Of a DNA stretch of 64,000 nucleotides, positions 2,279-41,886 are shown in pieces. The notes under the pieces are model-generated. The model was not told where the DNA came from, searched no databases, and saw only the letters and a list, made by a program, of their open reading frames with translations. Every line of letters starts with the position of its first letter. The first letter of the stretch is position 1. Position numbers and translations under genes: made by a program. The DNA is taken from the NCBI GenBank assembly GCA_016183565.1, contig JACPEJ010000001.1, forward strand, positions 48,196 through 112,195, in the 5' to 3' direction. The DNA is from Candidatus Blackburnbacteria bacterium (GTDB lineage: Bacteria; Patescibacteriota; Microgenomatia; UBA8517; UBA10165).

Positions 2279-3025
2279 TTAGCGAGGTAAGACTTGGTTA
2301 AAAATCCAAACTATTATTACACCGGATATTAAGAGTAAAGCTTGATACCAGTGATTGTTTCTTTTTTCCTCTTCTAATTCTGGCAAGAGATCGGAGGCGC
2401 CGATATAGAGAAACAGCCCGCCTGCTATAGCAAGTAAAACTCCTAAATTTTTCTCTGAAAAATTCTGAAAAAGAAAAACAAAGGCAACACCCAGGTAAGT
2501 AGCTAGGGCAGAAAAAATATTTACAGCCATTACTTTTAGCCTGCTCCACCCGGCTTTTATCATGAGGCTAAAATCTCCCATCTCATGGGGAATTTCATGA
2601 AGAAACGTTGCGACAGCAACAACTAAACCAAAAGCAGGATTGACTAAGTAGGAAGCAGCTATCGCAACACCATCCATAAAGTTGTGTATGGTGTCTCCTG
2701 CAACCACGAGAGGAAGAGAGGCTTTAAGTGAGCTTCCCCCGCTCTTTTCGTGGTGGTGTAGATGTAATAAGAACTGTTCAAAAAAGAATGCAGATATTAT
2801 TACAATCAGTACAACTTGCAAACCAAGCTCAACGCCTGTATGGTCAATAGCCTCTGGCAAGACATCTAAAAAAGAAACTCCAAGGAGGACTCCGGCTGCA
2901 AAAGGAATTGCGTGAGTAGAGATTGTCTTACCCAATGCTTTTTGAGACAGGATAATTAAACCTCCCAAAAGACCTGCAAGGCTTCCGAGGGTAGCAAGAC
3001 CAAACACAGGAAGAAGTGTTTCCAT
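2279..3025 (-). CDS. zupT: ZIP family divalent metal transporter
   Basis: HEIPHEMGDF and LHHH motifs; multi-TM 248-aa protein typical of ZupT/ZIP. Confidence 0.8.
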   Translation of the reverse strand: METLLPVFGLATLGSLAGLLGGLIILSQKALGKTISTHAIPFAAGVLLGVSFLDVLPEAIDHTGVELGLQVVLIVIISAFFFEQFLLHLHHHEKSGGSSLKASLPLVVAGDTIHNFMDGVAIAASYLVNPAFGLVVAVATFLHEIPHEMGDFSLMIKAGWSRLKVMAVNIFSALATYLGVAFVFLFQNFSEKNLGVLLAIAGGLFLYIGASDLLPELEEEKRNNHWYQALLLISGVIIVWIFNQVLPR

Positions 3026-3075
3026 CGTAGAACAATTACCGCATAATTACCGCGCTTTTGCCGCAAGGTATCAGA

Positions 3076-3989: not shown

Positions 3990-5498
3990 TTATCTATTCC
4001 TAACTACTATCCTCTTCTCTACCTTTATCTTGCCTATCATGGTTTCTTCAACAAGTTTTGTTCCTTCCTGCATTAGTTTTAGTTGTTTTTGTTGTTTTTC
4101 CAGATTGCCTCCTTCTTCAATTACTAAGAATCTAAATTTGTCACAACCAAGTGTAGGTGTTGAATAATGCTCACTTCCTGGCACATAAAGATATTTTAAT
4201 GAGGCAGGATAGTTGGAGTATTCACAGGGTACGTATTTATAAACCTTGCGGCCATACCACCAAAAAAGGTATTGATAAGGATAATCGTAGAAAGAAGGCA
4301 TATAGATATAAACGTTAAATCCATCATTTTCTGCGTTTTTGTAAACCCAATCGACAACAGAGATTTTACTGGCTAGAATTCCGGGATCATTTGAGGGATG
4401 AAGGTATTCTGTATACCTTTGTTTAAAAACAAGTAGCTGTGAAGCCATAACCAAAAAAAATATGGGTAGGCCGATTTTCCAAGGCTTGCTAAAAAGTATT
4501 AATAAGGTCGAGGTGAAAAGGAGGGGTGGCAAGTAGGGGTCGTGCCAATCTTGCCAACCTTTGTTTGCAGAGAAGAATAAATAAGAAACAGCAAAAAGGG
4601 CAAGAGTAAGGGAAACAAATTTTTTAGTAAAATCATCTTTCTTTTGCTTAAGCCAAATTAATAAAACTCCAAACAAAAAAATGCTCAAGACCAAGCTTTG
4701 TGGAATCAAAGAATCTCTGATAATTTCCAGGAATGCTTGGGTTACAGTACTAAAGTTGGTTCCAGAAAAAGTACCCAGGGCAGAACCTTGATCAAAATGC
4801 ACTAGAGTGAATACTTGTTTTGGGATTCCTGCTAAAAATAATATGGGAAAGAAAAAATTGGAAAGAATCAGAGTTTTCCATAATAATCGGCCATTTTTGA
4901 CTCCCCATAATCCAACAAGAAAATAAAAGACAAACATTGCTGCTGCACCTGCAACTTCGGTATTAAAAGCAAGTCCGATGGGGATGAAAGCCAAAAAGTA
5001 GCTTTTTTTGTTACCTTCCAGGAAGCTTATTAATAAGAGGATAAGAACCACAGAGAGAAAAACTAAAGGAAAGGGATTAAATGCCCAGCGGGAAGTGTCG
5101 TAAAAAAACCAGAATCCTTGTAGGGCAATTCCTACTAAAAGTCCGGCCTTGGGGGAAACCTTTTTTCCTATCTGCCAGATTAAAAGAGCGGTTGTAGCAA
5201 GACTTAATAAAATAACCATGAACAAAGCACCGAAGGGATGCCCTCCGAAGAGCTTGTAACCTACGGAGATAAAGTAGTACCAGCCGGGACCTGTGTAAAT
5301 TCCTGATATTCCTGTCATTGGGCCTTTAAAAAGGATTTGTCCCCTATCAAAGAGTTCTCTTGCGTGTACTGCATCGTCGCCTTGGTCGATTGTGAAGAAG
5401 AAGTTGTTGTTTTGGATGGGAATAATGCGAAGGATGTATGCAAAGATTAAGATTAAGATAAAAAGGAGCCAAAATAGTTTTTTGCTCATGGGTGTCAA
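3990..5498 (-). CDS. polytopic glycosyltransferase, ArnT/PMT-like (GT83/GT39 fold)
   Basis: 502 aa, ~12 TM helices; N-terminal DQGDDAVHARE loop typical of dolichyl/undecaprenyl-phosphate sugar transferases. Confidence 0.65.
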   Translation of the reverse strand: MTPMSKKLFWLLFILILIFAYILRIIPIQNNNFFFTIDQGDDAVHARELFDRGQILFKGPMTGISGIYTGPGWYYFISVGYKLFGGHPFGALFMVILLSLATTALLIWQIGKKVSPKAGLLVGIALQGFWFFYDTSRWAFNPFPLVFLSVVLILLLISFLEGNKKSYFLAFIPIGLAFNTEVAGAAAMFVFYFLVGLWGVKNGRLLWKTLILSNFFFPILFLAGIPKQVFTLVHFDQGSALGTFSGTNFSTVTQAFLEIIRDSLIPQSLVLSIFLFGVLLIWLKQKKDDFTKKFVSLTLALFAVSYLFFSANKGWQDWHDPYLPPLLFTSTLLILFSKPWKIGLPIFFLVMASQLLVFKQRYTEYLHPSNDPGILASKISVVDWVYKNAENDGFNVYIYMPSFYDYPYQYLFWWYGRKVYKYVPCEYSNYPASLKYLYVPGSEHYSTPTLGCDKFRFLVIEEGGNLEKQQKQLKLMQEGTKLVEETMIGKIKVEKRIVVRNR

Positions 5499-6809: not shown

Positions 6810-7123
6810 TCCCCGGTAGCTCAGTGGTAGAGCGGAAAGCTGTGTTAGCAGCCTTTGAGGGAAACCTCGGAGTGAAAAGTGGGTGAATTCAGGGAACGTC
6901 CTGAGCTTGTCGAAGGATAACCCTGAGCCAAGGGATGTACCAGACGGTACATCCAAGGTGCAGAGACTAGATGATTACATCCAAAGTCGAGCTTGCCTCG
7001 ACATGAGCGCCCACCACCTAAAGCCAGCTCTTGGTCACGGTGAAGAGATAGTCCATGCCGAAGAATTATTAAATGATTCTGAAAGTAACTTTAAGGTCGT
7101 AGGTTCGAATCCTACCCGGGGAG
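6810..7123 (+). tRNA. tRNA-Asn(GUU) interrupted by a group I intron between anticodon positions 35 and 36
   Basis: 7-bp acceptor stem TCCCCGG/CCGGGGA, D-arm GCTC-AGTGGTA-GAGC, T-arm GTAGG-TTCGAAT-CCTAC; exon junction gives anticodon loop CUGUUAA; no encoded CCA. Confidence 0.75.
6844..7085 (+). ncRNA. group I self-splicing intron (242 nt) within the tRNA anticodon loop
   Basis: R element CAGAGACTA (6961-6969) and S element AGAGATAGTCC (7044-7054) forming P7; P1 hairpin GCUGU/guua/GCAGC with U·G at the 5' splice site; terminal G at 7085. Confidence 0.75.
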
Positions 7124-7130
7124 CAAGATA

Positions 7131-7162
7131 GGACGCTTAAGGCACAAAGCGTCCTTTTTTGT
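7131..7162 (+). terminator. rho-independent terminator after the tRNA
   Basis: GGACGCTT-aaggcacaa-AGCGTCC stem-loop followed by TTTTTTG. Confidence 0.6.
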
Positions 7163-7336
7163 TGAATTGTCGGGCAATTCTTGATGTTCGAATTTTCCAT
7201 TTTCAAAATTTCCCAAATTTATATCTGGTAAACATCATAAATCTCTTCATAAAAAGTAATTGAAAAATTGGCAATTATTTTGTATGCTAGTGTCATCAAT
7301 TGGTAAGTAGTGTACTTCCACCAAAGGCGGACAAGT

Positions 7337-7504
7337 ATGGAAAAACTCTTAAAACTCAGAGAAGCGGCAGAGATACTGAGCGTTCACCCCAACACCCTTC
7401 GGCTTTGGGATCGCAAGGGTATTTTGGTGGCGGTACGCATTGGGGAGAAGAAAATCAGACGCTATCGTCTTGAGGATATTAAGAGGTTTATCAAGAAAAA
7501 ATAA
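7337..7504 (+). CDS. small HTH DNA-binding protein (MerR/excisionase-like)
   Basis: LREAAEILSVHPNTLRLWDRKGIL helix-turn-helix; AAGGCGG RBS-like motif 6 nt upstream of the ATG at 7337. Confidence 0.6.
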   Translation: MEKLLKLREAAEILSVHPNTLRLWDRKGILVAVRIGEKKIRRYRLEDIKRFIKKK

Positions 7505-7505
7505 T

Positions 7506-8336
7506 ATGACCAAAAAACAACAAAAAATTCAAGTTAAAGGTATCGAAATCGTAACCTTTAAAAAGAATGAAAACGACTATATTTCCCTAACTGATATTGC
7601 TCGGTATAAGGACAAAGATCGGAGTGATTACATTTTACAAAACTGGATGAGAACTAGGAGTGCGATTGAATATCTCGGTTTATGGGAAAAACTTTATAAC
7701 CCTAATTTTAATTCCATCGAATTCGATGGGTTTAGAAAACAGTCTGGTTTGAACAGTTTTGTGCTTACTCCTAAGAAATGGATTACTCAAACCAACGCCA
7801 TTGGGATCGTCTCAAAGGCAGGAAGATACGGAGGCACCTATGCTCACTTAGATATTGCTTATGAGTTCGCTTCGTGGATTAGTGCTGAATTTAAACTGTT
7901 TCTAATCAAGGAGTTTCAAAGACTCAAGCAGGAAGAAAACTTGCGACTAGAGCAGGGCTGGGATATCAAGCGTATGCTGGCTAAGATCAATTACAAAATT
8001 CACACTGATGCAGTTAAAGCTCACTTAATTCCTGCCAATATTTCAAAGAACAGGATTAACATGGTTTATGCCAATGAAGCAGATGTACTTAACGTAGCTT
8101 TATTTGGCAAGACGGCTAAGGATTGGCGTGATGAGAATAAGAGTAAGGATGGCAACATCCGCGATTACGCTGATGTTACCCAACTAGTCGTGCTAGCCAA
8201 CCTGGAAGGTATTAATGCAGAGCTGATCCGTCAGGGACTATCTCAACCGGATCGTTTATTACAACTTAATCAAATTGCCATATCCCAGATGCAATCTTTG
8301 CTGGGAAGTAGCAGTGTGAAGAAGTTGAAAGCCTAA
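7506..8336 (+). CDS. KilA-N domain protein
   Basis: N-terminal IEIVTFKKNENDYISLTDIARYK... matches the KilA-N DNA-binding domain; typical of phage/mobile regions. Confidence 0.65.
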   Translation: MTKKQQKIQVKGIEIVTFKKNENDYISLTDIARYKDKDRSDYILQNWMRTRSAIEYLGLWEKLYNPNFNSIEFDGFRKQSGLNSFVLTPKKWITQTNAIGIVSKAGRYGGTYAHLDIAYEFASWISAEFKLFLIKEFQRLKQEENLRLEQGWDIKRMLAKINYKIHTDAVKAHLIPANISKNRINMVYANEADVLNVALFGKTAKDWRDENKSKDGNIRDYADVTQLVVLANLEGINAELIRQGLSQPDRLLQLNQIAISQMQSLLGSSSVKKLKA

Positions 8337-8395
8337 AATTCAACTGTCCGGAAAAATGTCCGGAAAAACCGGATGGTTCAAAAATAAGAATATAA

Positions 8396-9829
8396 ATGAC
8401 TATGAATAACCAAATTAAATGTCCCTACTGCAACAAGTCGTTTGAGCCAACTGACGCTTATAAGCATGAACTAGAAGAAAAGTTACTTAGTGAAACTCAA
8501 CAAAAGCATCAGGAGGAAATCGATAAATTAAAGCTTGAGAAGCAAGAGCTTAGTATTGCCAAGGATAAAGAGTTAGAAGAAGCCAAGAAGCAGGTGGCTG
8601 AAACCGTACGCACAGAGGTTGAGAAAGAGATCAAACAAGAGTTACAAGACAAGATGGATGCGACTCAGGAACAAGCTGAAAATCAGGCGAAACGAAACAC
8701 CAAACTGCAGGAACAACTTGAAGAACAAACTAAGCTTGTGGGTGAAATGAAGAGTGAAAAAGATAAACTCCGCTTAGCACATGAGCAGGAGTTGGAAGAA
8801 ACGAAAAAGAAAACAACAGAAGCAGTTCGCCAGGAAGCCGAAAATAAGATAAGGAAAGAATTCGAAGTAAAGGTGGCATCAAGCCAAGAGGAGGCACAAG
8901 AGAGAGAAAAGCAAAATCAAGAGCTTCAAAAACAAACTGTTGAGCTCATGAAGCAACTGAGAGAATCCAAAGACGCAGAGGGTAAACTGAAAATTCAATT
9001 TGAGAGGATGTTGCTTGAAGAACAAGACAAAATCAAACAGGACGCGAAAAAGGAAACTGAAGATGCCTGGAATTTGAAAATGGCGGAAAAAGACAAACAA
9101 CTAGAAGATGCTCGCAAAGTTAATGTGGAATTACAAAGAAAACTTGAACAAAAATCGCAACAACTCCAAGGTGAAGTGCAAGAACTAAAGTTGGAAGAAC
9201 AACTCAAAGGTGAATTTCTCTTCGATGAAATAAGTGAAGTTCCCAAGGGTAGGGGCGGTGCAGATACAATCCAGGTGGTAAGAACCCAGTCAGGAGTTGT
9301 CTGTGGAACGATAGTCTGGGAGTCAAAACGGGCCCAAAGATGGGATCAAAAATGGATACAAAAGCTTCTTGATGATCAGCGTGCGGTTAAAGGAGATCTG
9401 GCTGTGTTAGTTTCCAACGTTTTCCCTGATTCTGTTAAAGGGTTTGGGATGGTTGAGAGTATTTTTGTTACAGATCTACCATCTGCACTTAGTGTCGCCT
9501 ACTTATTAAGGCAACAGCTGATGAAGGTACATTCAACCCAGATTGCCAACAGTGACAAGACAACGAAGGCAGAGATTGTTTATAACTATTTGATCAGTAA
9601 CGAATTTAAACAACGGATTGAGGTTTGGGTTGAGTATTTCAGAGAGAGGCAGGAAAAAATAAATAAAGAAAGAGTCTATTTCATCAAAAAATGGCAGGAA
9701 GAAGAAAAAAGTATTCATAAGGTTATCGCTACAACTTCTGGGATTTATGGTGATTTACAGGGATTGATCGGAAATGCTTTACCTAAGGTAGGTTATTTAG
9801 AGTTGCCGGATTCTGTAGAAGAAAAATAA
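8396..9829 (+). CDS. zinc-ribbon plus long coiled-coil protein with DUF2130-like C-terminal domain (possible PD-(D/E)xK-like fold)
   Basis: CPYCNKSF at the N-terminus, ~250 aa of E/K/Q-rich coiled coil, C-terminal GGADTIQVV...GTIVWESKR; 12-nt gap to the downstream helicase gene. Confidence 0.5.
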   Translation: MTMNNQIKCPYCNKSFEPTDAYKHELEEKLLSETQQKHQEEIDKLKLEKQELSIAKDKELEEAKKQVAETVRTEVEKEIKQELQDKMDATQEQAENQAKRNTKLQEQLEEQTKLVGEMKSEKDKLRLAHEQELEETKKKTTEAVRQEAENKIRKEFEVKVASSQEEAQEREKQNQELQKQTVELMKQLRESKDAEGKLKIQFERMLLEEQDKIKQDAKKETEDAWNLKMAEKDKQLEDARKVNVELQRKLEQKSQQLQGEVQELKLEEQLKGEFLFDEISEVPKGRGGADTIQVVRTQSGVVCGTIVWESKRAQRWDQKWIQKLLDDQRAVKGDLAVLVSNVFPDSVKGFGMVESIFVTDLPSALSVAYLLRQQLMKVHSTQIANSDKTTKAEIVYNYLISNEFKQRIEVWVEYFRERQEKINKERVYFIKKWQEEEKSIHKVIATTSGIYGDLQGLIGNALPKVGYLELPDSVEEK

Positions 9830-9841
9830 TTAAAATAGACA

Positions 9842-12800
9842 TTGAATATGAGCAATTCTTCACCACCACTCCAGACAAAATTACTCCAAAGAGCAAAAAA
9901 TAGCGATGAGTTTAATTTGTATGTGGCGGGTATAGAATGGGATCTTATTGAGCCAATTGTCATTGAAGACCGTGACGATATGCACTCCGAAAAGAAGTGG
10001 AGTGAGTTGTTGGAGCCATATTACCACCAAGTTACGAACCTGATTACATTTTGCCGTAGATTGCCAGTTACTTTATTAGCTGATGATGTTGGTTTAGGTA
10101 AAACAATTAGTGCTGGATTGGTGACAAGTGAATTAATGGCTCGTGGCAGAGTAACAAAAATACTTATTGTTTGTCCTAAATTATTAATGTTTCAGTGGAA
10201 GGAAGAGTTAGAAACTAAGTTTGGTATATCTTCCGTTATTGCTACTGGCAGAGACTTAATTAAAGCTACTCCACCAGGAGAGTTGGGAGCAGTGATAACT
10301 ACTTATGATTCTGCCCGTCTCCATCTCGATAAAATTTCTGACGTTGGTTACGAAATGTTGATTTTAGATGAAGCTCATAAGCTGCGAAATTTGTATGGTA
10401 TTGACCCGCCTCCTAAAAGAGCGGTTCGTTTTAAGCAAGCACTAGAAGATCGATTATTCAAATATGTTCTCATGCTTACTGCTACGCCGATTCAAAATAG
10501 GCTGTGGGATATTTATTCTCTAGTTGACTTACTGACTACTGCAAGGGGGCACGAAAATCCTTTCGGGAATCCGGGGATTTTTGCCCGCAGATTTATTGCG
10601 GACGCCAGGACAAAAGCCCGTCAATTAGTGCCATCAATGAAAGATGAGTTTCGGTCAATTGTCTATGGCTATATGTCACGGGTGAGACGAGCAGACGCAA
10701 ATCTTTATTTTCCTGAAAGAACTGTGCAGCTTCACAAGGTCACACCGACCCCTGACGAATTGAAGTTAATTGACATCATTGCTGAGCCAATTCAAAAGCT
10801 GAATCGTCTAGCACAAATCTCAATCCTCCAAGCACTCACAAGTAGTCCTCATGCTTTGTCAGCTCAATTAAAAAATATGGCGCGCAATGGAACCATCCCG
10901 GAGTCGTTATCATTGGAGGTTAGCGCTGTCGTTGAAAATATGAATGGCTCGGCAAAACTAAAAGGCCTCAGTACTCTTATTGACAAACTTGAAACTGAAA
11001 GACCGAATGATTGGAGATTAGTTATTTTTACTGGTCGTCGTGAAACTCAAACCACAATTGAGGAATTTTTGGGGAAACGAGGAATTACTTGCGGGCTAAT
11101 CAATGGAGATTCTGGGTTAAGGAACCAAGAAACTATAACTCAGTTTAAACAAAAACCTCCGGACATTCATGTAATTGTCTCAACAGAAGCTGGAGCTGAG
11201 GGTATAAATCTTCAAGCTGCTAATGTACTGGCTAACTACGATTTGCCGTGGAATCCAATGATTGTTGAACAAAGAGTAGGTCGGATTCAGAGGTTGGCCT
11301 CCGAGCATGCAAAGGTAAGCATTTTCAATATTATCTTGTCAAATACATTTGAAGAATACATCGTTGCTAGGCTTATGGAAAAACTCCAAATGGCCTCACA
11401 GGCAATTGGTGATGTTGAAGCAATGCTTGAAGCATCCGGGCTGGACGAGGATGAAAATGGATCGGTTGGTTTTGAGGAAATGGTAAGGCGACTTGTTATC
11501 GATTCTTTGGCAGGTAAAGATGTAGAAGTAGCAACAAAAATCGCTAGTGAAAGCATAACGAAGGCTAAGACTAAACTTAAGGAGGAACAAAAAAACATCA
11601 GTTCTATGTTAGGTACTATGGGGGATGCTTCTGAGTTTGGTCCTCGATGCCCAAGTTTACCGAAGCTAAATCACTCCATGGATATACGTGATTTTGTTTT
11701 GACTGCTCAAGAAGGCTTTGGTGCAAAAATAACTCCCCAATCTAAGGGAATATATTTTTGTGAACTTAATGATGAAAAAGAATCAATATATTTTGAGGAA
11801 AAAGATAACGGTCGAATAGACGGGGTGTTGTACGCGCAAGGTACATCTGCCTTTGAACGTTTGGTAAGTAAAGTAATTAGTAAACGACTTCACGATGTTG
11901 AAGATCTGGACAAAGATCTTGAATTAAACACGCAAGAAACCATACGAGGATGGGTCAGCAGTTTTAATGGTGCATTTAAAGAAACAGAAACAAACAAAGT
12001 CTGGAACTGTTTTGAAGGGACAGCTCTTATCAGGGTTCGTTCAACTGTAGCGCATGATAGTTATGAACGATTAGTTAGCATCGAATGCTTGTCCAAAGAT
12101 CATAAGATAGAAGTCAGACCAAAGAATCTCAAGCCCTTGGGAGAATTTATTGATGGACACTTAGGAGTTGGTGTGGTCCCAGACCAGTTGGTTGAAAAGG
12201 CAATGCTTGATGAAGGGATAGATGAATTTTGTCGTTTTTATAAAGAGAGAATGGTTCAGGAAGTGGTTGCTGCAGGCAGTGATTTACGCAAGAAAAAGAA
12301 ACTAGAAGATGAATTTACACCAAGAGTGGAAATGAGCTTAGTAGGATTGGTTGGCACGATGCACCGCCAATTACAAGTCGATGTTGCATACGATATTGAT
12401 TCCATTGCTGAGTATAAGAGCTCAATACTTGTTTTGCCTTTTAAAAAGGAGGTAATTGAAGCGCCAGTTTTGTACAAATGTGAATCAACAGGAGAGGAAG
12501 CCCCTCATGATTGTCTGGGCATATGTGATATTAGTGGACGTAGAGTACTACGTCACTTACTTGTAAGTTCTGAAGAAAGCGGAAGGAAAGCTCTGCCTGA
12601 ATATATTAGAACATGCGCTCTTTCAGGCAAAAAGGTTCTAAGTGATGAAATCGAAAAGTCAGCAATCACAGGCGAATCCGTTACAAGTTCTCTACTTAAA
12701 ACTTCAGCTTTAAGTGGCAAACGTGCAGAACTAAAGTTCTTTGGAACTTGTGAATTCACCTCTGCAGAAGTTCTCGAGGATGAATTGGCAATAAGCCAGA

Positions 12801-13552
12801 TTTCAGGAAAAAAATACAGAATGGATGAGCAACTTCAGTCTGTAGTTTCTAAGAAGACTGGTCATAAACAAGAATTTATTTTTTGTGCTGAGACGGGACA
12901 ACCTCTGTTGTCAACGGAGACAGAGACATGTGAGCTAACTAAAAAGGTTGTTATTCCCGGCCTACTTGAAACGTGTGAAGTATCTAAGAAAAAAGTTCTA
13001 CCTGCAAAGCTAGAAAAATCAGCACTTTCAGGCAAAAAAGCACTCAAGAAATACTTTGTATCAAGTAGTATTTCAGATGCACGACTACTTGAAGGAGAAG
13101 CAATTAGGTCAGTTGATGGCAATTTCTGTTCTCCTTTGGAGGCTAAAAGGTGTTCGTGGAGTGATCGAGAATGTCATTCGGATGATTTAAAGATTTGTAA
13201 TTTAACAGGTCTTCCTATTTATCTAGAGTATGTGACTAGGAAGAAACCGAGTCGATTAGAGCCACTTGTTGACCTCTTGGGAAATATCAGAAGGACGGCT
13301 GACGAGGGGGAGACTTGGGTAGCAGTCGCAGAGAAAGCTTCAACAATTCTCAAGATGAAAGGTTGTAAGGTGGAGTCTGCAGTTCTATCTCCAGATAAGG
13401 GAAAATTGGCGGTATGTATAGAGGTAAAGACTTGGTTGGGTTTGAAAGTTCGCTATGCGGGGTTGGTTTTTCTGATAAAAGATGAAGAAGTCATTGGGAA
13501 GATATCTTTAGGTAGACGCGAAAAAGGAAACTGGTTAATGGAGAATTCTTAA
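9842..13552 (+). CDS. SNF2-family helicase (DEAH ATPase core) with ~450-aa C-terminal extension containing tandem SGKK-type repeats
   Basis: motif I LLADDVGLGKTISAG, motif II LILDEAHKLRN, TATPIQNRL, helicase-C QRVGRIQRLAS; C-terminal repeats SALSGKK/AITGESV/QISGKK and Cys-rich tail. Confidence 0.85.
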   Translation: MNMSNSSPPLQTKLLQRAKNSDEFNLYVAGIEWDLIEPIVIEDRDDMHSEKKWSELLEPYYHQVTNLITFCRRLPVTLLADDVGLGKTISAGLVTSELMARGRVTKILIVCPKLLMFQWKEELETKFGISSVIATGRDLIKATPPGELGAVITTYDSARLHLDKISDVGYEMLILDEAHKLRNLYGIDPPPKRAVRFKQALEDRLFKYVLMLTATPIQNRLWDIYSLVDLLTTARGHENPFGNPGIFARRFIADARTKARQLVPSMKDEFRSIVYGYMSRVRRADANLYFPERTVQLHKVTPTPDELKLIDIIAEPIQKLNRLAQISILQALTSSPHALSAQLKNMARNGTIPESLSLEVSAVVENMNGSAKLKGLSTLIDKLETERPNDWRLVIFTGRRETQTTIEEFLGKRGITCGLINGDSGLRNQETITQFKQKPPDIHVIVSTEAGAEGINLQAANVLANYDLPWNPMIVEQRVGRIQRLASEHAKVSIFNIILSNTFEEYIVARLMEKLQMASQAIGDVEAMLEASGLDEDENGSVGFEEMVRRLVIDSLAGKDVEVATKIASESITKAKTKLKEEQKNISSMLGTMGDASEFGPRCPSLPKLNHSMDIRDFVLTAQEGFGAKITPQSKGIYFCELNDEKESIYFEEKDNGRIDGVLYAQGTSAFERLVSKVISKRLHDVEDLDKDLELNTQETIRGWVSSFNGAFKETETNKVWNCFEGTALIRVRSTVAHDSYERLVSIECLSKDHKIEVRPKNLKPLGEFIDGHLGVGVVPDQLVEKAMLDEGIDEFCRFYKERMVQEVVAAGSDLRKKKKLEDEFTPRVEMSLVGLVGTMHRQLQVDVAYDIDSIAEYKSSILVLPFKKEVIEAPVLYKCESTGEEAPHDCLGICDISGRRVLRHLLVSSEESGRKALPEYIRTCALSGKKVLSDEIEKSAITGESVTSSLLKTSALSGKRAELKFFGTCEFTSAEVLEDELAISQISGKKYRMDEQLQSVVSKKTGHKQEFIFCAETGQPLLSTETETCELTKKVVIPGLLETCEVSKKKVLPAKLEKSALSGKKALKKYFVSSSISDARLLEGEAIRSVDGNFCSPLEAKRCSWSDRECHSDDLKICNLTGLPIYLEYVTRKKPSRLEPLVDLLGNIRRTADEGETWVAVAEKASTILKMKGCKVESAVLSPDKGKLAVCIEVKTWLGLKVRYAGLVFLIKDEEVIGKISLGRREKGNWLMENS

Positions 13553-13563
13553 AATTAAAAAAT

Positions 13564-14229
13564 ATGCAAAACTCATATCTTCATTCTAGGTTAAGTTCAA
13601 TTCAGAAACAGTTAATTGCTCATCACGAAGGAGGAAGCCCTAGCTCTACCTCTAAAGGAAGAGAGCGAGAGGATTTTATCAATAGTTATCTTGAAAAGAT
13701 AATGCCCCCAGTGTTTCGCTTTGGTTCTGGAGAGGCAATTGATGCGAATGATAAAGTTACAGGTCAACTTGATTTGGTTGTTGAGTATCCATTGTTTCCT
13801 AGCCTTCACCAACCAGGTGGAAAACCCAGACTGTATGTTGCCGAAAGCATCGCAGCAGTCATAGAAGTAAAATCTGATTTGAGTACCCAGTGGGAAGAAG
13901 TTCTTAGTACAGCTAAAGCAGTAAAAGATCTTTACCGCGGTTGGGGAGGAAATATCTTGATTGGTGACGAAAGATTCGCAAAAACTATTCCAGTGTTTGC
14001 AGTAGGTTATGAAGGATGGGCAAAGGAAGAGACGGTGCAATCAAAGCTGATTGATAGCGGCGTTGACGCAATTTTGGTAATAGACCCTGGTATTTTTGTT
14101 GCAAATGAATTGTTTAGTCTAAAGAAAAGTTTTCAGGGGCCTTGGGCTCTTTGGGGATTTTTTACTTGTTTATATTTAGCTTTTGATTCAATAAAAGTTT
14201 TACAAGCTGATTTAGAGAATTACGCCTAG
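13564..14229 (+). CDS. PD-(D/E)xK nuclease-like protein (Hjc/restriction-endonuclease-like core)
   Basis: GQLDLVVEY ... AAVIEVKSD arrangement (D..E.K); 11 nt after the helicase stop, consistent with an operon. Confidence 0.5.
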   Translation: MQNSYLHSRLSSIQKQLIAHHEGGSPSSTSKGREREDFINSYLEKIMPPVFRFGSGEAIDANDKVTGQLDLVVEYPLFPSLHQPGGKPRLYVAESIAAVIEVKSDLSTQWEEVLSTAKAVKDLYRGWGGNILIGDERFAKTIPVFAVGYEGWAKEETVQSKLIDSGVDAILVIDPGIFVANELFSLKKSFQGPWALWGFFTCLYLAFDSIKVLQADLENYA

Positions 14230-14260
14230 GTAATTTAAGAAAAATTGGTCAGGAATCGGT

Positions 14261-14385
14261 TGACCTCCTTCACCGTCCACTCCGCCTACGCCAAGGCTTC
14301 GGCGGACACGTCCGGATACTCCCCTCCAGAGGCGGGCGGGCAGCTCGCTGACCCAATCAATTCGTCCAAAATCATACCATCGTTC
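14261..14385. repeat. copy A of a ~120-nt conserved noncoding element (ccttcaccgtccac...gtccggatactcc...cccaatcaattcgtcc...ccatcgttcgagcca)
   Basis: direct-sequence match to 16809-16922; the conserved blocks flank a central hairpin that differs in sequence but not position between copies. Confidence 0.7.
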
Positions 14386-14760
14386 GAGCCAAGAAATTAG
14401 ATACGAACTCGGATTTTGAAGATGAGTTCGTATTGTCTTCTTTGGCTCCCGAATTAAAACCTTCGCAAACCCCGAAGGAGAACAAGTTCCCTACGGGGCA
14501 TGCTTTTGAAATCATTTTGCCAAATCTGATACACAAATCCAAAACCCTCCTTCGCGTAAAGCTATGAAAGGGCAAAGAGCGAAATCTGAAATGATGCGCC
14601 CCGCCACTATTTTTCTGGGGCAAAGGAGGCGGGGCGACGGACTCGTGAGCGCGCAGGAGCGAGGTCTCGGGGAGGCCCTCCAGAGGCGGGTAAAAATCCG
14701 CGCGGGCTTCGGCTTTCTTTTTTGAAAAAATCGGCGGATACAAATTGAGAAAAGATTAGA
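14386..14760. ncRNA. GC-rich noncoding region contiguous with repeat copy A; candidate large structured RNA of unknown identity
   Basis: ~500 nt without a convincing ORF; local GC is far above the surroundings; internal repeat cctccagaggcggg at about 14321 and 14680; GC hairpins. Confidence 0.3.
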
Positions 14761-14824
14761 TTCATGTTAGTCTAGTTGTGAGAGTTAAGTTCAACGCTCA
14801 TACTTATACTATCATACAAAAAGC

Positions 14825-15220
14825 ATGGAGCAAACTGTGCAAGGTGCGATGAATAGGGCAAAAAATGCTTTCAAGGACTGCGACTTTTCTTTTGGATTAG
14901 AGAGTGGGCTTATAGAAGTTCCAAACACGAAAAGTGGATATATGGATATTACAATGTGTGCCATATATGATGGCAAAAATTTTCACTTAGGCGGGTCTTC
15001 TGCTTTTGAATATCCAAAATCTATGATTGATTTGGTTTTTAGCAAAGATTATGACATTGATGAGGCGGCAAAAGAAGCCGGGTTTTCCCATGATGAAAAT
15101 ATTGGCGAAAGAGAAGGAATGATAGGTGCTCTTACGAAGGGACGGCTAAATCGAAAGGGATATAGCAAGCAGGCAGTAATAACTGCTCTTATACACCTTC
15201 TTAATCCAGAGCATTATTAA
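14825..15220 (+). CDS. YjjX/DUF84-like inosine/xanthosine triphosphatase family protein
   Basis: C-terminal GEREGMIGALTKGRLNRKGYSKQAVITAL resembles the YjjX GRKEGAIGVFTAGKLTR...QAVILAL motif. Confidence 0.5.
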   Translation: MEQTVQGAMNRAKNAFKDCDFSFGLESGLIEVPNTKSGYMDITMCAIYDGKNFHLGGSSAFEYPKSMIDLVFSKDYDIDEAAKEAGFSHDENIGEREGMIGALTKGRLNRKGYSKQAVITALIHLLNPEHY

Positions 15221-15229
15221 AATAAATTT

Positions 15230-15619
15230 ATGAACTACAAAGGCGTAATAATCGAGGAAAGTTTAGAGAATAAAGGCATTCTAAAAGATGTCAAAATTTT
15301 AGAGACAAAGGTTGAAGAAGTTGTAGAGGAACACAAAACTCCTTGGATAAAACAATGGACTTTACATACCGTTGAAATTCCAGAAAATCAAGCAAAAGAT
15401 GTCGCAGAAAAATTAAGCAAAATACTAGACTCTGAACATAACTGGTATGCTGATTTCAAAAATGATTCTCACCATTACATCATTTTCCGCGACAAAGTTT
15501 TTTATATTGACCGAAAAAGTAAGGAACAATACGACGAAGCGAAACGCTATGGTATTTCTCTCGAAATACCAGAATATCAAGTAGATTTTGCTCCCGACGA
15601 TAAAATTTGGGAAAGATAA
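15230..15619 (+). CDS. hypothetical protein
   Basis: 129-aa ORF with no recognisable motif. Confidence 0.4.
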   Translation: MNYKGVIIEESLENKGILKDVKILETKVEEVVEEHKTPWIKQWTLHTVEIPENQAKDVAEKLSKILDSEHNWYADFKNDSHHYIIFRDKVFYIDRKSKEQYDEAKRYGISLEIPEYQVDFAPDDKIWER

Positions 15620-15621
15620 TT

Positions 15622-15897
15622 ATGACAACAATTCATAAAAAAGTTTGGCGAGAATATTTTGACAAAATTGTTTCCGGCAAGAAAAAGTTGGAATTACGCC
15701 TTGCTGATTTTGAAGTAAATGAGGGCGACACTTTAGTTTTGGAGGAATGGGACAAGGATAAAAAAGATTATACTGGACGAAAGATTGAAGTTGTCGCCAC
15801 CTATATTCTCAAAACCAAAGGTCAAACTTTTTGGTCGCCGGAGGAAGTTGAGAAATATGGTTTCCAAATTATTCAATTTGAGCCAAAGGAAAAATAA
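15622..15897 (+). CDS. ASCH-like/DUF3850 small protein
   Basis: KKVWREYFDKIVSGKKKLELRLADFEVNEGDTLVLEEW matches the DUF3850/ASCH pattern; the ATG at 15622 is preferred over the TTG at 15607. Confidence 0.5.
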   Translation: MTTIHKKVWREYFDKIVSGKKKLELRLADFEVNEGDTLVLEEWDKDKKDYTGRKIEVVATYILKTKGQTFWSPEEVEKYGFQIIQFEPKEK

Positions 15898-15899
15898 TT

Positions 15900-16205
15900 A
15901 TGGACATCAAGCAAAAAACGGCAGAAACCTACGACAAAATTGCTTCCGGCTACAGCGCAGGACATTTTGCTCATTTTTGGATTGAAGAATTTGATTTTTA
16001 CAAAAACATTACTGACGGTAAAAAAGTCATTGACCTTGGTTGCGGAGCCGGACGAGACGCCGCCGTTTTTGTAGAAAATGGTTTTGATTACACTGGCATA
16101 GATGCTTCGGAGGCAATGCTAAAGGTAGCAAGTGAGAGAGTGGCAAAGGGGAAATTCCAAAAAATGGATTTCAGCAGAACCATTTTCCAAGTAGCTTGTA
16201 GGTAA
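15900..16205 (+). pseudogene. truncated class I SAM-dependent methyltransferase (N-terminal half only)
   Basis: motif I VIDLGCGAGRD is present, but the ORF stops after 101 aa, before the post-I motifs. Confidence 0.5.
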
Positions 16206-16236
16206 CTGTAGCTAAATGTAGGTAATTGCAGGTAAA
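16196..16236. repeat. short tandem repeat tgtaggtaaYtgYag (x3)
   Basis: tgtaggtaactgtagctaaatgtaggtaattgcaggtaa. Confidence 0.6.
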
Positions 16237-16266
16237 AGTTTTCACTGCCACTGAAAACTTTTTTGC
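16235..16266. terminator. bidirectional hairpin terminator between convergent genes
   Basis: GTTTTCA-ctgccac-TGAAAAC, followed by TTTTTT on the plus strand and AAAA upstream on the minus strand. Confidence 0.55.
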
Positions 16267-16274
16267 TAACCCTT

Positions 16275-16745
16275 TTAATTCAACACCACAATCGCCGCAT
16301 TTAGTATGGTAGCAAAGCTGACCCACAAGAGGTACGGCACCAGTAAATAAAATGCTAGTGTTGATAACGGATAAAACTTTTTCATTGTTACCACAATAAG
16401 TACCCACATCGCCACAATTACGATCAATCCCAAAAACGGTGCTCGCAGTCCAAAGAAAACTGGTGACCAGATAAAGTTAAGTCCCAGTTGGGCCAGAAAA
16501 AACAAACCTGCAGTCTTCATCTTCTTTTTCTTCCACCCCTGCTTCCAAATCAAATAAAAAGCCACGCCCATCAGAAAGTACAAAAGCGTCCAAACCGGTC
16601 CAAAGATCCAATTAGGGGGAGCAAAGAAAGGCTTATTCAAGGTGGCGTACCAAATAGGGATAGCAGAGATGGTAAAAGGAGTTCCTAAGAATCCAACTAA
16701 TTCACAGCCAATCACGGAAACAATAAGTTTGGGCAAGTCTTTCAT
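16275..16745 (-). CDS. tspO: TspO/MBR tryptophan-rich sensory protein
   Basis: LNKPFFAPPNWIFGPVWTLLYFLMGVAFYLIW signature; 5 TM helices. Confidence 0.85.
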   Translation of the reverse strand: MKDLPKLIVSVIGCELVGFLGTPFTISAIPIWYATLNKPFFAPPNWIFGPVWTLLYFLMGVAFYLIWKQGWKKKKMKTAGLFFLAQLGLNFIWSPVFFGLRAPFLGLIVIVAMWVLIVVTMKKFYPLSTLAFYLLVPYLLWVSFATILNAAIVVLN

Positions 16746-16808
16746 CTGCCTTTAGTATGAAACAAATTCGGCAAGAGAGCAATCAATATTGCAGAAACCT
16801 CCCTACTT

Positions 16809-16922
16809 CCTTCACCGTCCACCCCCGCCTGCAACGCTATGCGTCGCATTGCGGGCAGGTCCGGATACTCCAACTCCGTTACCCAATCAATTCGTCCGAA
16901 TTCTTCCCATCGTTCGAGCCAG
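16809..16922. repeat. copy B of the ~120-nt conserved noncoding element (see 14261-14385)
   Basis: same conserved blocks as copy A, with a different central hairpin (CCTGC..CGCTATGCG-uc-GCATTGCG..GCAGG). Confidence 0.7.
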
Positions 16923-17025
16923 ATGGGACGGGAGGGCAACAAAGAGTCCTTTTGTCCCGTAACATTCCGGGTTTTAGTGTTAAAATCCTCACGGGAAAAT
17001 GCCTCTGTTTTGGTATAATTGGAGT

Positions 17026-17631
17026 ATGAGGAAGTGGCTAATTTTACTCATCTTTATAATTATCACGCTATTTCTATCTCCGGCTTTGGTTGCAGCTCAA
17101 ACGAACACAGAAAGTGGTGATCACACAGCGCGTGAGGAACAAGAAGGTAAAGAAATTTGGGGTAAGTTACAAGCAAAACAACTTGAGTGTAACAACCTTA
17201 CTGATGAAAACTACGCAGTGCTTGGTGAATATTTTATGGGTCAATCAATCGGTAACACAGAACGACATGCAGCCATGAATCAGATGATGATAAGTATGGT
17301 GGGTGAGCAGGGAGAGGAACAGATGCATGTTGTTATGGGTAAAAGAAATAGTGGTTGTGATACAGGGACGAAGGGAGGTGGAAATCCTATGATGGGATAT
17401 GGTGGTTGGGGTAATATGATGGGGTGGGGATTTGGAATCTTAGGCTGGCTCTTTATGCTTCTGTTTTGGCTGCTTATAATTCTTGGGGTGGTTGCTCTTG
17501 TCCGCTATTTAGGCGGTTCAGGTAAAACTGCTAAAGATGATAAAACTCCTGTGGAGATTCTCAAAGAGCGTTATGCCCGTGGAGAAATTGATAAAAAAGA
17601 GTTTGAAGAGAAGAAAAAAGATTTAGACTAA
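17026..17631 (+). CDS. secreted/membrane protein with C-terminal SHOCT domain
   Basis: signal/TM segment WLILLIFIIITLFLSPALVAA; C-terminal ILKERYARGEIDKKEFEEKKKDL SHOCT motif; TGgTATAAT -10 and GGAG just upstream. Confidence 0.55.
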   Translation: MRKWLILLIFIIITLFLSPALVAAQTNTESGDHTAREEQEGKEIWGKLQAKQLECNNLTDENYAVLGEYFMGQSIGNTERHAAMNQMMISMVGEQGEEQMHVVMGKRNSGCDTGTKGGGNPMMGYGGWGNMMGWGFGILGWLFMLLFWLLIILGVVALVRYLGGSGKTAKDDKTPVEILKERYARGEIDKKEFEEKKKDLD

Positions 17632-17949: not shown

Positions 17950-18134
17950 GAGCAGAAGCAATAGATATGCATAATATGAAGCATTTTAGTGGTAATGATG
18001 GGATAAATGAACTTTCAATAGCATTAGATTCAATATCTAACCTTCAACAACTCCACTTGAACTAAATCTTTAAAGGCTTTAACTTCATAGAAATTGTAAT
18101 TATCTTGACAATCACTATAAGGAGGCTTTATTAT

Positions 18135-18461
18135 TTGAATAATCGTTCAAATACTATGGCAGAGTATCAACAAATAAAGAAGGAATTAAAAAGCAAACAG
18201 AAACTTTTGGCGTGTGCAAAGCAGTTTGGGGTGGTTGGTGATGCTACAAGGCTAAAGATTTGTTACCTTCTTTGCCATTATCCTGAAGTTAGTGTTAGTG
18301 AAATGGCTGTGATATTAGATACCTCTGTTTCTGTCGTCTCCCACAGCGTAAAGAAACTTTTGGACTTGAATTTAGTACAACGGAGAAAAGAAGCTCAAAC
18401 AGTGTACTATTCTCTGACAACTAATGATTTCACTAAGACACTTAAAAACTTTATTACATGA
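18135..18461 (+). CDS. ArsR/SmtB-family metalloregulatory transcription factor
   Basis: winged-HTH ATRLKICYLLCHYPEVSVSEMAVILDTSVSVVSHSVKKLLDLNLV; AGGAGG RBS upstream of the TTG at 18135 (ATG alternative at 18156). Confidence 0.7.
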   Translation: MNNRSNTMAEYQQIKKELKSKQKLLACAKQFGVVGDATRLKICYLLCHYPEVSVSEMAVILDTSVSVVSHSVKKLLDLNLVQRRKEAQTVYYSLTTNDFTKTLKNFIT

Positions 18462-19066
18462 CTATTTCAGCGCTTAAATGGGGTATTTTCTCAGCCCTCT
18501 TGGCCTCCTTATGTTGTATCGGCCCCTTAGTCTTAATTTTATTTGGTGTGGGTGGAGCCTCAACAGCGTTAGCCATTGGCTACCGCAAGCCGTACTTTCT
18601 GTTTTTTGGTTTAACAGTGCTTATTATTGGATTAGCTTTCCTCTATTGTAAAAGTTGTAGTACGACAAAGTTAAACAGGAAACAGCAAGTATTCGTCTTT
18701 GGAGGTTCATTTCTGGTTGCGGCATTATTATATTACCTTTTGACCTATGTGGTAGTGCCAGCAGTTGCTCCACTGGTCTATCAGTCCAAAAGTGTTTCAA
18801 GCATACTAAGCTCTTTTTCAAATAGTAGACCCCACAAGACAACACTCAGAATAGATGGGATGTGGTGTACCTCATGTGCAGTAAGCGCGCAATATAGCTT
18901 AAAGAGTCTTCCTGGTGTTACTGACGCTTATGTTGGCTTTACGAAAAACCTTGATGGTGAAGGTTGGGTTATTTACAAACAGGATAAGGTTAGCAAGGAA
19001 CAAATTATTAAAGCAATTGAACCATATAAAGCAGTGATTACATCTGATATTGTGTACACTAAATAA
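18458..19066 (+). CDS. merT: MerT-like mercuric transporter fused to a C-terminal heavy-metal-associated (HMA) domain
   Basis: N-terminal LLASLCCIGPLVL Cys pair in TM1; C-terminal GMWCTSCAVS GMxCxxC metal-binding motif. Confidence 0.65.
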   Translation: MTISALKWGIFSALLASLCCIGPLVLILFGVGGASTALAIGYRKPYFLFFGLTVLIIGLAFLYCKSCSTTKLNRKQQVFVFGGSFLVAALLYYLLTYVVVPAVAPLVYQSKSVSSILSSFSNSRPHKTTLRIDGMWCTSCAVSAQYSLKSLPGVTDAYVGFTKNLDGEGWVIYKQDKVSKEQIIKAIEPYKAVITSDIVYTK

Positions 19067-41229: not shown

Positions 41230-41652
41230 AATTTTCTTGATTTGGTTGGTATAAACGGTGCAGTTCGGGTTTCTGGTGAAGAAGATTCCTATCGGGTGCA
41301 GGTAGAATCTGATGAAGCCGGAATATTGATAGGACGGCGAGGTGAGACTGTGGCTGCTTTACAGTTGGTGATAAAACAAGTTGTGTACAATCGGGTTGGG
41401 AAGAACGTTGATAAATTTCATTTGATTGTTAATGTTGGAGATTGGCAGGAACGGCGTGAGGATGTGTTGCGCTCGCTTGCCATGTCAGCAGTTACAAAGG
41501 TGAAAGCAACCAATGAACCTTGCCATATTTATGATCTTTCTCCTTCGGAGCGGCGGTTTGTGCACATTCTTCTTTCTGAAGACCAGAGTGTTTCTACGGA
41601 ATCAGAAGGTGAAGGACGAGATCGACATTTGGTGGTTAAACCTTGTGAGTGA
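41161..41652 (+). CDS. jag: Jag/KhpB-like KH plus R3H RNA-binding protein
   Basis: KH GILIGRRGETVAALQLV and R3H ERRFVHILL; start ambiguous among 41161, 41185 and 41194. Confidence 0.7.
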   Translation: MFLVKYLYMNEMQYETLIQEVAQNFLDLVGINGAVRVSGEEDSYRVQVESDEAGILIGRRGETVAALQLVIKQVVYNRVGKNVDKFHLIVNVGDWQERREDVLRSLAMSAVTKVKATNEPCHIYDLSPSERRFVHILLSEDQSVSTESEGEGRDRHLVVKPCE

Positions 41653-41886
41653 TTTTTCAGGTGGGTCCTGTCAGGAGCTCCCGAGTCCGACGTCCTCGCT
41701 TAACGCTTCTGGCGCTCGATGGGACTCCTCGTTCGAGTCTGAGCCGATTCGGCCTGAGCTCACTGTCGAAGGACCTGAGGGCTCATCCCTCAGAGTCGAA
41801 GACCTCCCATACTGACACCCACTTCACTTGAAAACTGGATTGTTTTTCGGTTAACGGCTACTATTGTAGTAATATCACTATTTTTC

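Follow-up and report, generated by a model that had tools for sequence, protein, structure and literature searches.

Two conserved repeats in a Patescibacteria genome are probably the stranded 3' tails of a serine integrase that targets tRNA-Asn

The stretch of DNA considered here, hereafter the window, comprises 64,000 nucleotides (nt) of contig JACPEJ010000001.1 (positions 48,196 to 112,195, forward strand) from the Candidatus Blackburnbacteria bacterium assembly GCA_016183565.1. It contains a transfer RNA (tRNA) gene for asparagine that is interrupted by a group I intron, a run of genes that starts beside this tRNA and ends with a DUF6602 gene and, immediately beyond, two copies of a short GC-rich sequence in the same orientation, here called copy A and copy B, with decayed genes between them (Table 1). 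A preliminary description of the window, made from the letters alone, had recorded the two copies as an element of about 120 nt and read them as a structured RNA with a variable central hairpin, or else as direct repeats left by an insertion or deletion event. The repeat pair is real. All four sequence blocks that were quoted for it match exactly at the two places and nowhere else in the window, including CCTTCACCGTCCAC at 14267 and 16809, CCCAATCAATTCGTCC at 14352 and 16882 and CCATCGTTCGAGCCA at 14377 and 16907, and none of 100 shuffles reached the match count observed for the first block. Gapped alignment gives 84-90% identity between the copies within the blocks, and both regions are about 60-70% G+C against 42% for the window. 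The location given earlier was right, whereas the homologous unit, its bounds judged against 87 relatives, proved slightly longer, running from 14235 to 14391 and from 16783 to 16921.

Translated on the minus strand, the two copies differ by what seem to be synonymous or conservative changes, as in WLERW(YD/EE)FGRIDWV(S/T)EL, and a single reading, WLERW.(D/E)FGRIDWV(S/T)EL…EWTVKEV.RFL followed by a stop, is common to both copies, seven genome loci and 80 metagenome loci. The seven were obtained by searching reference genomes with a two-block DNA pattern; four are labelled Paceibacterota, Curtissbacteria or Patescibacteria and three, which may be mis-binned, Gammaproteobacteria or Pseudomonadales. 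In all seven the element is about 80-95 nt long and the central hairpin is absent, and in one (L002; L and P numbers are our handles for loci and proteins) the DNA has diverged while the amino acids are kept. A metagenome search with the 33-residue alignment returned 178 relatives, of which 80 loci were kept. Nearly all of these are orphans, with 32-34 open codons up to the stop and further stops 2-40 codons upstream, and they have no conserved start, the codon preceding LERW being TGG, GTG, TTG, CTG or others. More than 85 relatives have one block of about 95 nt in common, both edges of which are sharp.

The same block also forms the end of real proteins. Two large serine recombinases terminate in this tail, the complete L102 protein (533 amino acids, aa) and the L026 protein (at least 400 aa, its gene running off the contig); a 187-aa C-terminal fragment in L036 ends likewise, and the tail is also continuous with proteins such as P0043 and P0053. 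Members of this integrase family contain Resolvase, Recombinase and Zn-ribbon domains, with an N-terminal domain that matches the TP901-1 integrase. In tblastn searches the L102 and L026 recombinases match both copies in the window, and no recombinase body is found anywhere in its 64 kb. Among 72 distinct tails, the fraction of non-consensus bases at codon positions 1, 2 and 3 is 0.10, 0.07 and 0.25, so that variation at third positions exceeds that at the other two by a factor of 2.5 to 3.7; synonymous changes make up 59% of the differing codons in the tail frame compared with 5-12% when the coding strand is read in either other frame, and an in-frame stop occurs in only one of the 72. The repeats are thus almost certainly the last 33 codons of a Patescibacteria large serine recombinase (integrase) gene on the minus strand. 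The preliminary description had allowed that the element might turn out to be the 3' end of a protein gene with an intact homologue elsewhere, and L102, L026, P0043 and P0053 are such homologues.

In the window itself there is no intact, expressible integrase gene: the body is missing, stops lie upstream and inserts shift the frame. Ancestrally, copy A reads WLERWYDFGRIDWVSEL..EYP..EWTVKEVNRFLTNFS and stop, now broken by two insertions totalling 49 nt, and copy B reads WLERWEEFGRIDWVTELEYP..WTVKEVGRFLQY and stop, with a single insertion of 37 nt. With the frame shifted by inserts of 49 and 37 nt, both copies are dead relics and not genes. Searches with the relics themselves returned little. 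The translated copies had no match in Pfam, and a protein search with the 66-aa open reading frame (ORF) of copy B gave no candidate because gene callers skip orphan tails. An exact look-up of tspO found no record. A scan of viral contigs with a 16-mer gave 18 matches, none of them a tail, and the two among them that matched a longer piece of the tail (L015 and L017) were set aside as chance matches. Two further identities were considered and dropped: the template and variable repeats of a diversity-generating retroelement, since the differences between copies are not adenine-specific, and a type I toxin peptide, since the product is not hydrophobic and has no start codon.

These observations bear directly on the reading of both copies as structured noncoding RNA genes or leaders, copy B serving as the 5' leader of tspO. 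Copy B does lie where the preliminary description placed it, 37 nt upstream of the tspO start on the minus strand, and the adjacency of tail and tspO recurs in at least nine other genomes; both inserts fold as GC-rich hairpins, and in thermodynamic folding copy B is more stable than shuffled sequence, with z about -2. Copy A, however, folds no better than shuffled sequence (z +0.8), and, copy B excepted, z ranges from -1.2 to +0.9 for the copies and a 496-nt GC-rich tract on both strands. Two of the checks that had been proposed for the RNA, a search of Rfam and an analysis of covariation, gave it no support. Rfam gave no credible match in 14100-17100 at the gathering threshold or at E <= 10, and RNAalifold, applied to 32 relatives on the strand of the preliminary description only, found 3 base pairs, -1.0 kcal/mol and 0 covarying pairs. 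ARAGORN reported no tRNA anywhere in the window, and a promoter and terminator scan found sites no more numerous than in shuffled sequence. The family consensus has no hairpin, variation tracks codon positions, and the same block terminates real integrase proteins. The argument that conserved strands around a variable stem are unlike the decay of a protein gene fails on the same grounds, the minus-strand frame being an integrase 3' end with variation concentrated at third positions. We regard the RNA reading as largely refuted and assign it next to no probability.

The central hairpins were correctly seen to fold in each copy but are not part of the element. At the point where they sit the family consensus has no hairpin, which makes them insertions, and in alignment to that consensus the 30-nt insert of copy A and the 37-nt insert of copy B occupy one and the same site, TATCCGGA/GTGGAC (here and below a slash marks a junction). 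Predicted folding energies are about -13 kcal/mol (copy A) and between -18 and -24 kcal/mol (copy B). Inserts of any kind occur in only about 5 of the approximately 92 tails examined; in L085, L086 and L088 the second tail carries, at this same site, a 60-nt insert homologous to the 30-nt one, and by eye the inserts of both copies have similar GC-rich ends, C.TG.CCGC … G.AGGCGG. A blastn-short search of the window and about 120 loci found no dispersed copies of the inserts beyond the L085, L086 and L088 tails and a 14-15-nt motif at 14676, and a small palindromic insertion element (REP/RPE/MITE-like) was set aside as their source, since many dispersed copies were not found in 64 kb of genome and about 120 loci. 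The motif in question, the 15-nt GC-rich CCCTCCAGAGGCGGG, occurs twice in the window, at 14322-14336 in the first insert of copy A and at 14676-14690 in the GC-rich tract beyond it, with matches of 15-18 nt in L031, L006 and L067, and may be part of a small GC-rich insertion sequence.

If the tails are pieces of integrase genes, the question is how they became separated from them, and the integrases themselves suggest an answer. A protein search with the L026 integrase gave 790 matches, most of which have no tail, as they span only 92-93% of the query. Among the 120 best L026 homologues, about 88 by our own reading (50 by strict pattern match) lose homology at …RPIWL and run on as PG and a stop, PREDSNLEP, PRRDSNAQPYS or PRVGSNHGHPP, which is the translated complementary strand of a tRNA 3' end, and about 14 carry a canonical or divergent tail. 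Tail-bearing and tRNA-fused states are both present within at least two subfamilies. ARAGORN places a tRNA-Asn(GTT) over the integrase 3' end in L110, L111, L112, L113 and L115, the integrases of L106, L107 and L109 abut an intron-bearing tRNA-Asn like that of the window, and the host core genes rpoD and dnaG lie beyond the tRNA-Asn in integrase loci. Wherever the tRNA at such a junction was identified, it was tRNA-Asn. Homology between tRNA-fused and tail-bearing forms ends at GCTC, the same point at which orphan tails begin: the 5' edge of the tail block is sharp in every context and follows directly after (T/G)GCTC, with highly diverse sequence upstream. Downstream contexts recur and include the end of a DsrE-like gene, the start of tspO (as at copy B) and the end of a convergent DUF6602 gene, the junction with which is the same at copy A, L052 and L075.

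Sharp edges on both sides, many copies in many contexts and a frame intact in nearly all of them could also describe an autonomous miniature mobile element of about 95 nt or an independent gene for a 33-residue peptide. Against this, integrase genes in L026, L102 and P0043 run into the block without a break, a conserved start codon is absent, and there are neither terminal inverted repeats nor target duplications; we consider this very unlikely. As a separate observation, at least 14 loci share about 40 conserved nt (…TTGTTACTAATTGTAACTTTGTGGTGATTTCTGTTGATCTC) immediately before the tail break point, whatever follows downstream (L001, L004, L006, L035, L047, L048, L053, L054, L055, L063, L066, L067, L077 and L093). 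This motif could be a conserved downstream flank of tRNA-Asn or part of a recombination site.

Complete elements, in the order tail, cargo and integrase fused to a tRNA (tRNA-Asn in the first of them), are present on two metagenome contigs. In L112 (Ga0619461) the tail lies at 351-446 and the integrase at 10001-11614, 9.6 kb downstream on the same strand and ending in tRNA-Asn; the two junctions read …ACTCTGCTC/GAGAAATGG and …CCCATCTGGCTC/CCCCGCG, and joining linker to tail gives a continuous frame. In L118 (GCA_964345375.1), the layout of which matches that of the window, two divergent tails of the WDDFRT type lie 2.06 kb apart and 6.9 kb upstream of an integrase gene that runs on, at its 3' terminus, into the complementary strand of a tRNA-like 3' end (…LLRGLDSNQQP), at which ARAGORN called no tRNA. 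Two or more tails within a few kb of each other also occur in L007, L043, L063 and L085/86/88, and several tails per locus fit repeated insertion at one tRNA. No tRNA directly adjoins an orphan tail, the tRNAs being 2-5 kb off or beyond the flank; in L003, L033, L067, L070 and L097 the distance between tail and tRNA-Asn is 2-5 kb and their relative orientation is the predicted one. The tail-bearing integrase P0103 is found on contigs of 22-24 kb with plasmid- or phage-like genes and no adjacent tRNA, which may represent the free form of an element.

The window can be read in the same way. ARAGORN missed its tRNA-Asn, the anticodon of which is split between positions 35 and 36 by a group I intron of 242 nt (6844-7085); this intron is the only Rfam match above threshold in the window (6832-7073). 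The tRNA 3' end, …GGGGAG/CA, carries the crossover core. The same intron-bearing tRNA-Asn is present in L033, L070, L106 and L109, and group I introns in Patescibacteria tRNA-Asn genes have already been described (PMC13011429). Fused to the tRNA is a stump that corresponds to the linker preceding the tail in integrases. Across the junction of stump and tRNA the DNA is 86.5% identical to the intact integrase loci L106 and L107; the sequence follows integrase DNA through …CCTATCTTGCTC and then switches to tRNA, at the same break point that forms the 5' edge of the tails. The stump would therefore be a tRNA-proximal junction from which the integrase body has been deleted, and the partner junction of the tails thus lies 7 kb from them, at the tRNA-Asn gene. 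In L112 and L118, and as remnants in the window (the stump at 7124-7216 and tails ending at 14391 and 16921), the element lies between pieces of the gene that are on one strand, the C-terminal one coming first.

By this comparison the tRNA-Asn, stump, cargo and tail A appear to make up one island of 7.3 kb (7124-14391), and tail B would close a second, outer and older decayed island of 2.5 kb that carries tspO. The suggestion of direct repeats from an insertion event was thus partly sound, in that both copies appear to be junction scars, but they seem to be same-kind junctions of two islands rather than the two ends of one; attachment (att) sites of a single island were dropped as an identity for the same reason. 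Insertion of islands beside the intron-bearing tRNA-Asn would also explain the gene decay that had been noticed between the repeats, where the NTPase lacks the first 40 profile positions and the methyltransferase is truncated, ending after about 100 residues. A local duplication of a decayed gene fragment, unrelated to site-specific integration, would likewise give direct repeats 2.5 kb apart with decayed genes between them. It would not account for the different linker remnants and downstream neighbours of the two copies, nor for the fact that the pairing at copy A is shared with L052, L075 and L094 and that at copy B with L007, L026, L033 and others, nor for a 5' edge that stays the same, and sharp, across more than 85 unrelated contexts, and we give it only a very small probability.

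Table 1. Features of the window that bear on the two repeats and the putative islands; a slash marks a junction.
Feature	Coordinates	Strand	Basis or content
tRNA-Asn(GUU) with group I intron; probable integration target	6810..7123	+	Rfam RF00028, sequence, exon junctions, homologous tRNA-Asn genes
Integrase 3' end remnant (stump), …NFENGKFEHQELPDNSTKKDALCLKRPI-LLPG and stop, fused to tRNA	7124..7216 (93 nt)	-	tblastn (match 7216-7121), ORF
Cargo of the putative tRNA-proximal island	7310..14229	+	HTH_17/MerR (64 aa), KilA-N, DUF2130, SNF2 helicase, DUF6602
Copy A, orphan large serine recombinase 3' tail	14235..14391	-	tblastn to full-length recombinases, alignment to family consensus
Copy A insert 2, 30-nt GC-rich hairpin at TATCC/GGAGTGGAC	14285..14314	-	
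Copy A insert 1, 19 nt, GC-rich, contains CCCTCCAGAGGCGGG	14323..14341	-	
Sequence just outside copy A, …HLQNPSSYLIS/WLERW	14392..14448	-	
Putative older decayed island between tails	14449..16782	.	GC-rich tract, truncated NTPase, two small genes, truncated methyltransferase, terminator-like hairpin, tspO
tspO	16275-16745	-	
Copy B, orphan recombinase tail with one 37-nt insertion	16783..16921	-	
Copy B insert, 37-nt GC-rich hairpin, same site as copy A insert 2	16823..16859	-	
Linker ("pre-tail") remnant joined to copy B, NVTGQKDSLLPSRPI	16922..16966	-	Profile match E 3e-5

Taken together, the two copies are probably integrase tails left behind by an integrase that targets tRNA-Asn and has its phage-type attachment site (attP) in its own reading frame. 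The junction sequences would place attP inside the gene, where a disordered linker gives way to a small C-terminal module of three helices. Integration would occur at the 3' end of tRNA-Asn, with crossover in a core of 4-6 bp, the TGGCTC in the gene corresponding to GAGCCA at the tRNA end. After integration the integrase body would end in a few codons taken from the complementary strand of the tRNA, and the tail, without a start codon, would be stranded at the distal end of the island, attached to the former downstream flank of the tRNA. For L112 the predicted circular junction, with linker joined to tail, is …CGTCCCATCTGGCTC/GAGAAATGGTCACAA…, and the predicted empty site is tRNA-Asn…GGGGGAG/CAGAGTATAAT…. 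In the window the integrase of the tRNA-proximal island would have been deleted down to the 93-nt stump, and the hairpin insertions would have broken the tail frames. What the sequences show is that the copies are integrase tails, together with the coding signature, the tRNA-fused integrase forms, the common break point and two complete elements elsewhere; the direction of the reaction, the rejoining of the tail upon excision, the role of the tail and the order in which the two islands arrived are inferred. The AlphaFold model of the tail-bearing integrase P0073 has three short helices at 520-552 (predicted local distance difference test, pLDDT, 76-83), preceded by a 30-residue disordered linker at 487-518 (pLDDT about 40), so in the model the tail looks like a tethered module. 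This self-splitting, tRNA-Asn-targeting mechanism is likely, at a confidence that ranges from a little below to level with that for the origin of the two copies. Somewhat less firmly, we favor the broader proposal that serine integrases widespread in Patescibacteria target the tRNA-Asn 3' end through an in-frame attP, lose a 33-residue module and gain tRNA-encoded residues on integration, and are restored by excision.

A different account of the same loci would make the orphan tails empty landing pads owned by the host, in which a tail-less integrase gains a tail on integrating and the tRNA-fused forms represent a second target. Orphan tails are indeed far more numerous than tail-bearing genes, and they lie at recurrent places, beside tspO, a DsrE-like gene and DUF6602. 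In L003, L033, L067, L070 and L097 there is a tail but no integrase, and the tail subtype of L112 does not match the closest integrase. Landing pads nevertheless give no reason for a same-strand tail upstream of an integrase and tRNA junction with an in-frame join (L112, L118 and the window), and an untranslated host pad would not retain coding-type substitutions. Divergent tails (WDDFRT…) pair with divergent integrase subfamilies, as if travelling with the element, and the P0103 contigs hint at free elements that already carry the tail. On balance we think landing pads unlikely, and prefer the self-splitting integrase.

Several observations sit poorly with a self-splitting integrase. Neither the circular junction nor the empty site was observed, and we infer the whole model from assembled contigs. 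Only 2 of the 7 loci examined with an integrase and tRNA junction have a tail within 10 kb upstream; none was found within that distance in L106, L109, L113/L114, L115 and L116/L117, and L110/L111 offer only about 3 kb upstream before the contig ends. In the five loci with a tail and no integrase, the flank of the tRNA-Asn holds no integrase remnant, for which simple decay is insufficient. Both tails in the window and that of L027 retain linker codons upstream of the break point and are therefore not clean junctions of host and tail, so that tandem accretion or later rearrangement is required. The L112 tail is of a subtype unlike that of L026, the closest tail-bearing integrase, and evidently either tails are exchanged or the model assumes too tight a pairing. 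In L118, at 938-997 and 2998-3057, both tails are preceded by the same flank of about 45 nt with a terminator-like hairpin, AAAGCCCAATAAACTGGGCTTT, which is not expected from simple accretion. Finally, the mechanism does not account for the GC-rich tract at 14449-14760 or the hairpin insertions.

Other features of the window surround these junctions. The linker remnant joined to copy B has 14 residues identical to integrase P0012. The sequence just outside copy A is common to L094/L095 up to 14425, resembles the L102 pre-tail (by eye only) and holds a 25-nt imperfect inverted repeat, an arm of which terminates at the GGCTC core; it may be either an older integrase 3' end remnant or former tRNA-flanking DNA. 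Together with the tract that follows, it accounts for the GC-rich region noted earlier beyond copy A (14392-14760, about 70% G+C versus 42% for the window). For the part at 14449-14760 no homologue was found, and a profile of 121 recombinases had no match in its six-frame translations, so a decayed integrase was rejected there; a 502-aa gene at 3990-5498 on the minus strand, also considered as the missing integrase, encodes a glycosyltransferase-type protein instead.

The cargo of the putative tRNA-proximal island looks like anti-phage defence. Its KilA-N protein matches the PADLOC candidate PDC-S22 (E 8e-133), the SNF2 helicase (1236 aa) is BrxH/DrmD-like, and DUF6602 is a PD-(D/E)xK nuclease that is NucC-like. 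Related islands in L106, L109, L112 and L113 carry restriction-modification genes and a PycTM protein. The 64-aa HTH_17/MerR gene with its upstream 70 nt (window 7243-7504) is 89-96% conserved in five tail-bearing loci (among L041, L043, L046, L049, L055 and L113), and HTH_17 genes are present in every integrase-bearing element examined, making the protein a candidate excision (directionality) factor. In the decayed island, the NTPase is truncated N-terminally, and three to four tandem 10-nt units (TGTAGGTAAC-like, 16197-16236) lie exactly where the methyltransferase frame is cut off. A hairpin just after tspO, AAAAGTTTTCACTG/CAGTGAAAACTTTT (16234-16262), recurs directly after orphan tails in L002, L035, L043, L044 and L061 with no tspO between tail and hairpin, as if tspO were a cassette that is present or absent at this position. 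Just past the outer island, an ArsR-family regulator and then a MerT/HMA-domain membrane protein (18105-19066, plus strand) are accessory genes of metal-resistance type and suggest that the variable region extends further. Elsewhere, an intergenic tract of about 190 nt (41638-41831) is 64% G+C against 42% for the window, with several possible stems and no Rfam match, and may be an undescribed RNA or another decayed insertion.

The closest parallel to the proposed mechanism is found among the SSV-type or "suicidal" integrases (SSV1, pTN3 and pT26-2), in which the recombination site lies in the reading frame of the integrase and integration into a tRNA gene splits the gene around the element (PMC8371274, PMC7253208). 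L112, L118 and, as remnants, the window have the same layout. SSV-type enzymes are archaeal tyrosine recombinases, exclusive to archaea according to a review (PMC8371274), whereas the integrase here is a large serine recombinase with a Resolvase domain, in hosts labelled Patescibacteria. The split also differs, as only the 33-residue C-terminal module is removed; the catalytic and DNA-binding domains all remain in one piece, so the integrated form need not be dead. By analogy, the family would work like an SSV-type system without being a member of that family.

With the large serine integrases (Bxb1, phiC31, A118 and TP901-1) the family shares the domain order of Resolvase, Recombinase and Zn ribbon with coiled coil, a very short common core and small HTH_17 genes nearby that are possible directionality factors. 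A tethered C-terminal module of three helices that integration exchanges is not known from any large serine integrase. The small serine recombinase of the Ralstonia phage phiRSM reportedly targets a tRNA-Ser gene. Short common cores are usual among serine integrases (PMC8092301). Known large members differ in carrying attP outside the gene and are reported to target protein-coding genes; two papers on the mapping of genomic islands state that no serine integrase is known to use a tRNA gene as its target (PMC4383910, PMC7192596).

Islander-type islands offer another comparison, with an island directly after a tRNA gene, the integrase beside the tRNA, accessory or defence cargo and tandem arrays at one tRNA. 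A tRNA at one end with an adjoining integrase is seen in L110-L113 and L115 and, as the tRNA-Asn and stump, in the window. Islander islands rely on tyrosine integrases and carry at their far end a displaced piece of the tRNA, tens of bases long; no such fragment is found here, where only GCTC or TGGCTC (4-6 nt) is shared and the far end is marked by a piece of the integrase gene instead. In mycobacteriophages with integration-dependent immunity, attP lies inside the repressor gene and integration alters the C-terminus of the protein (PMC8092301). There too the integrated and free forms of a protein differ because attP lies within its gene, but the split gene is a repressor, the integrase is a tyrosine recombinase, and a short degradation tag is removed rather than a folded module. 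A serine integrase island with SSV-like gene splitting would thus combine known kinds of system. A literature search found no description of a self-splitting serine integrase or of a Patescibacteria serine integrase, although one may still exist.

What had appeared to be two RNA elements would thus be integration scars that delimit a 7.3-kb island of defence type and a 2.5-kb island with tspO. More generally, the sequences indicate a family of bacterial serine integrases that both target a tRNA and split their own gene, most integrated members of which are truncated, with orphan tails that we put at hundreds in groundwater metagenomes. If this is true, self-splitting would for the first time extend beyond archaea and beyond tyrosine integrases, and a serine integrase would have a tRNA target. 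The detachable tail could then be a built-in switch for direction or activity, and the family would offer a natural case in which integration edits the C-terminus of the integrase itself, which bears on how direction is controlled in serine integrases. For Patescibacteria, in which mobile elements are poorly charted, orphan tails would provide an easily searched sequence marker of island boundaries.

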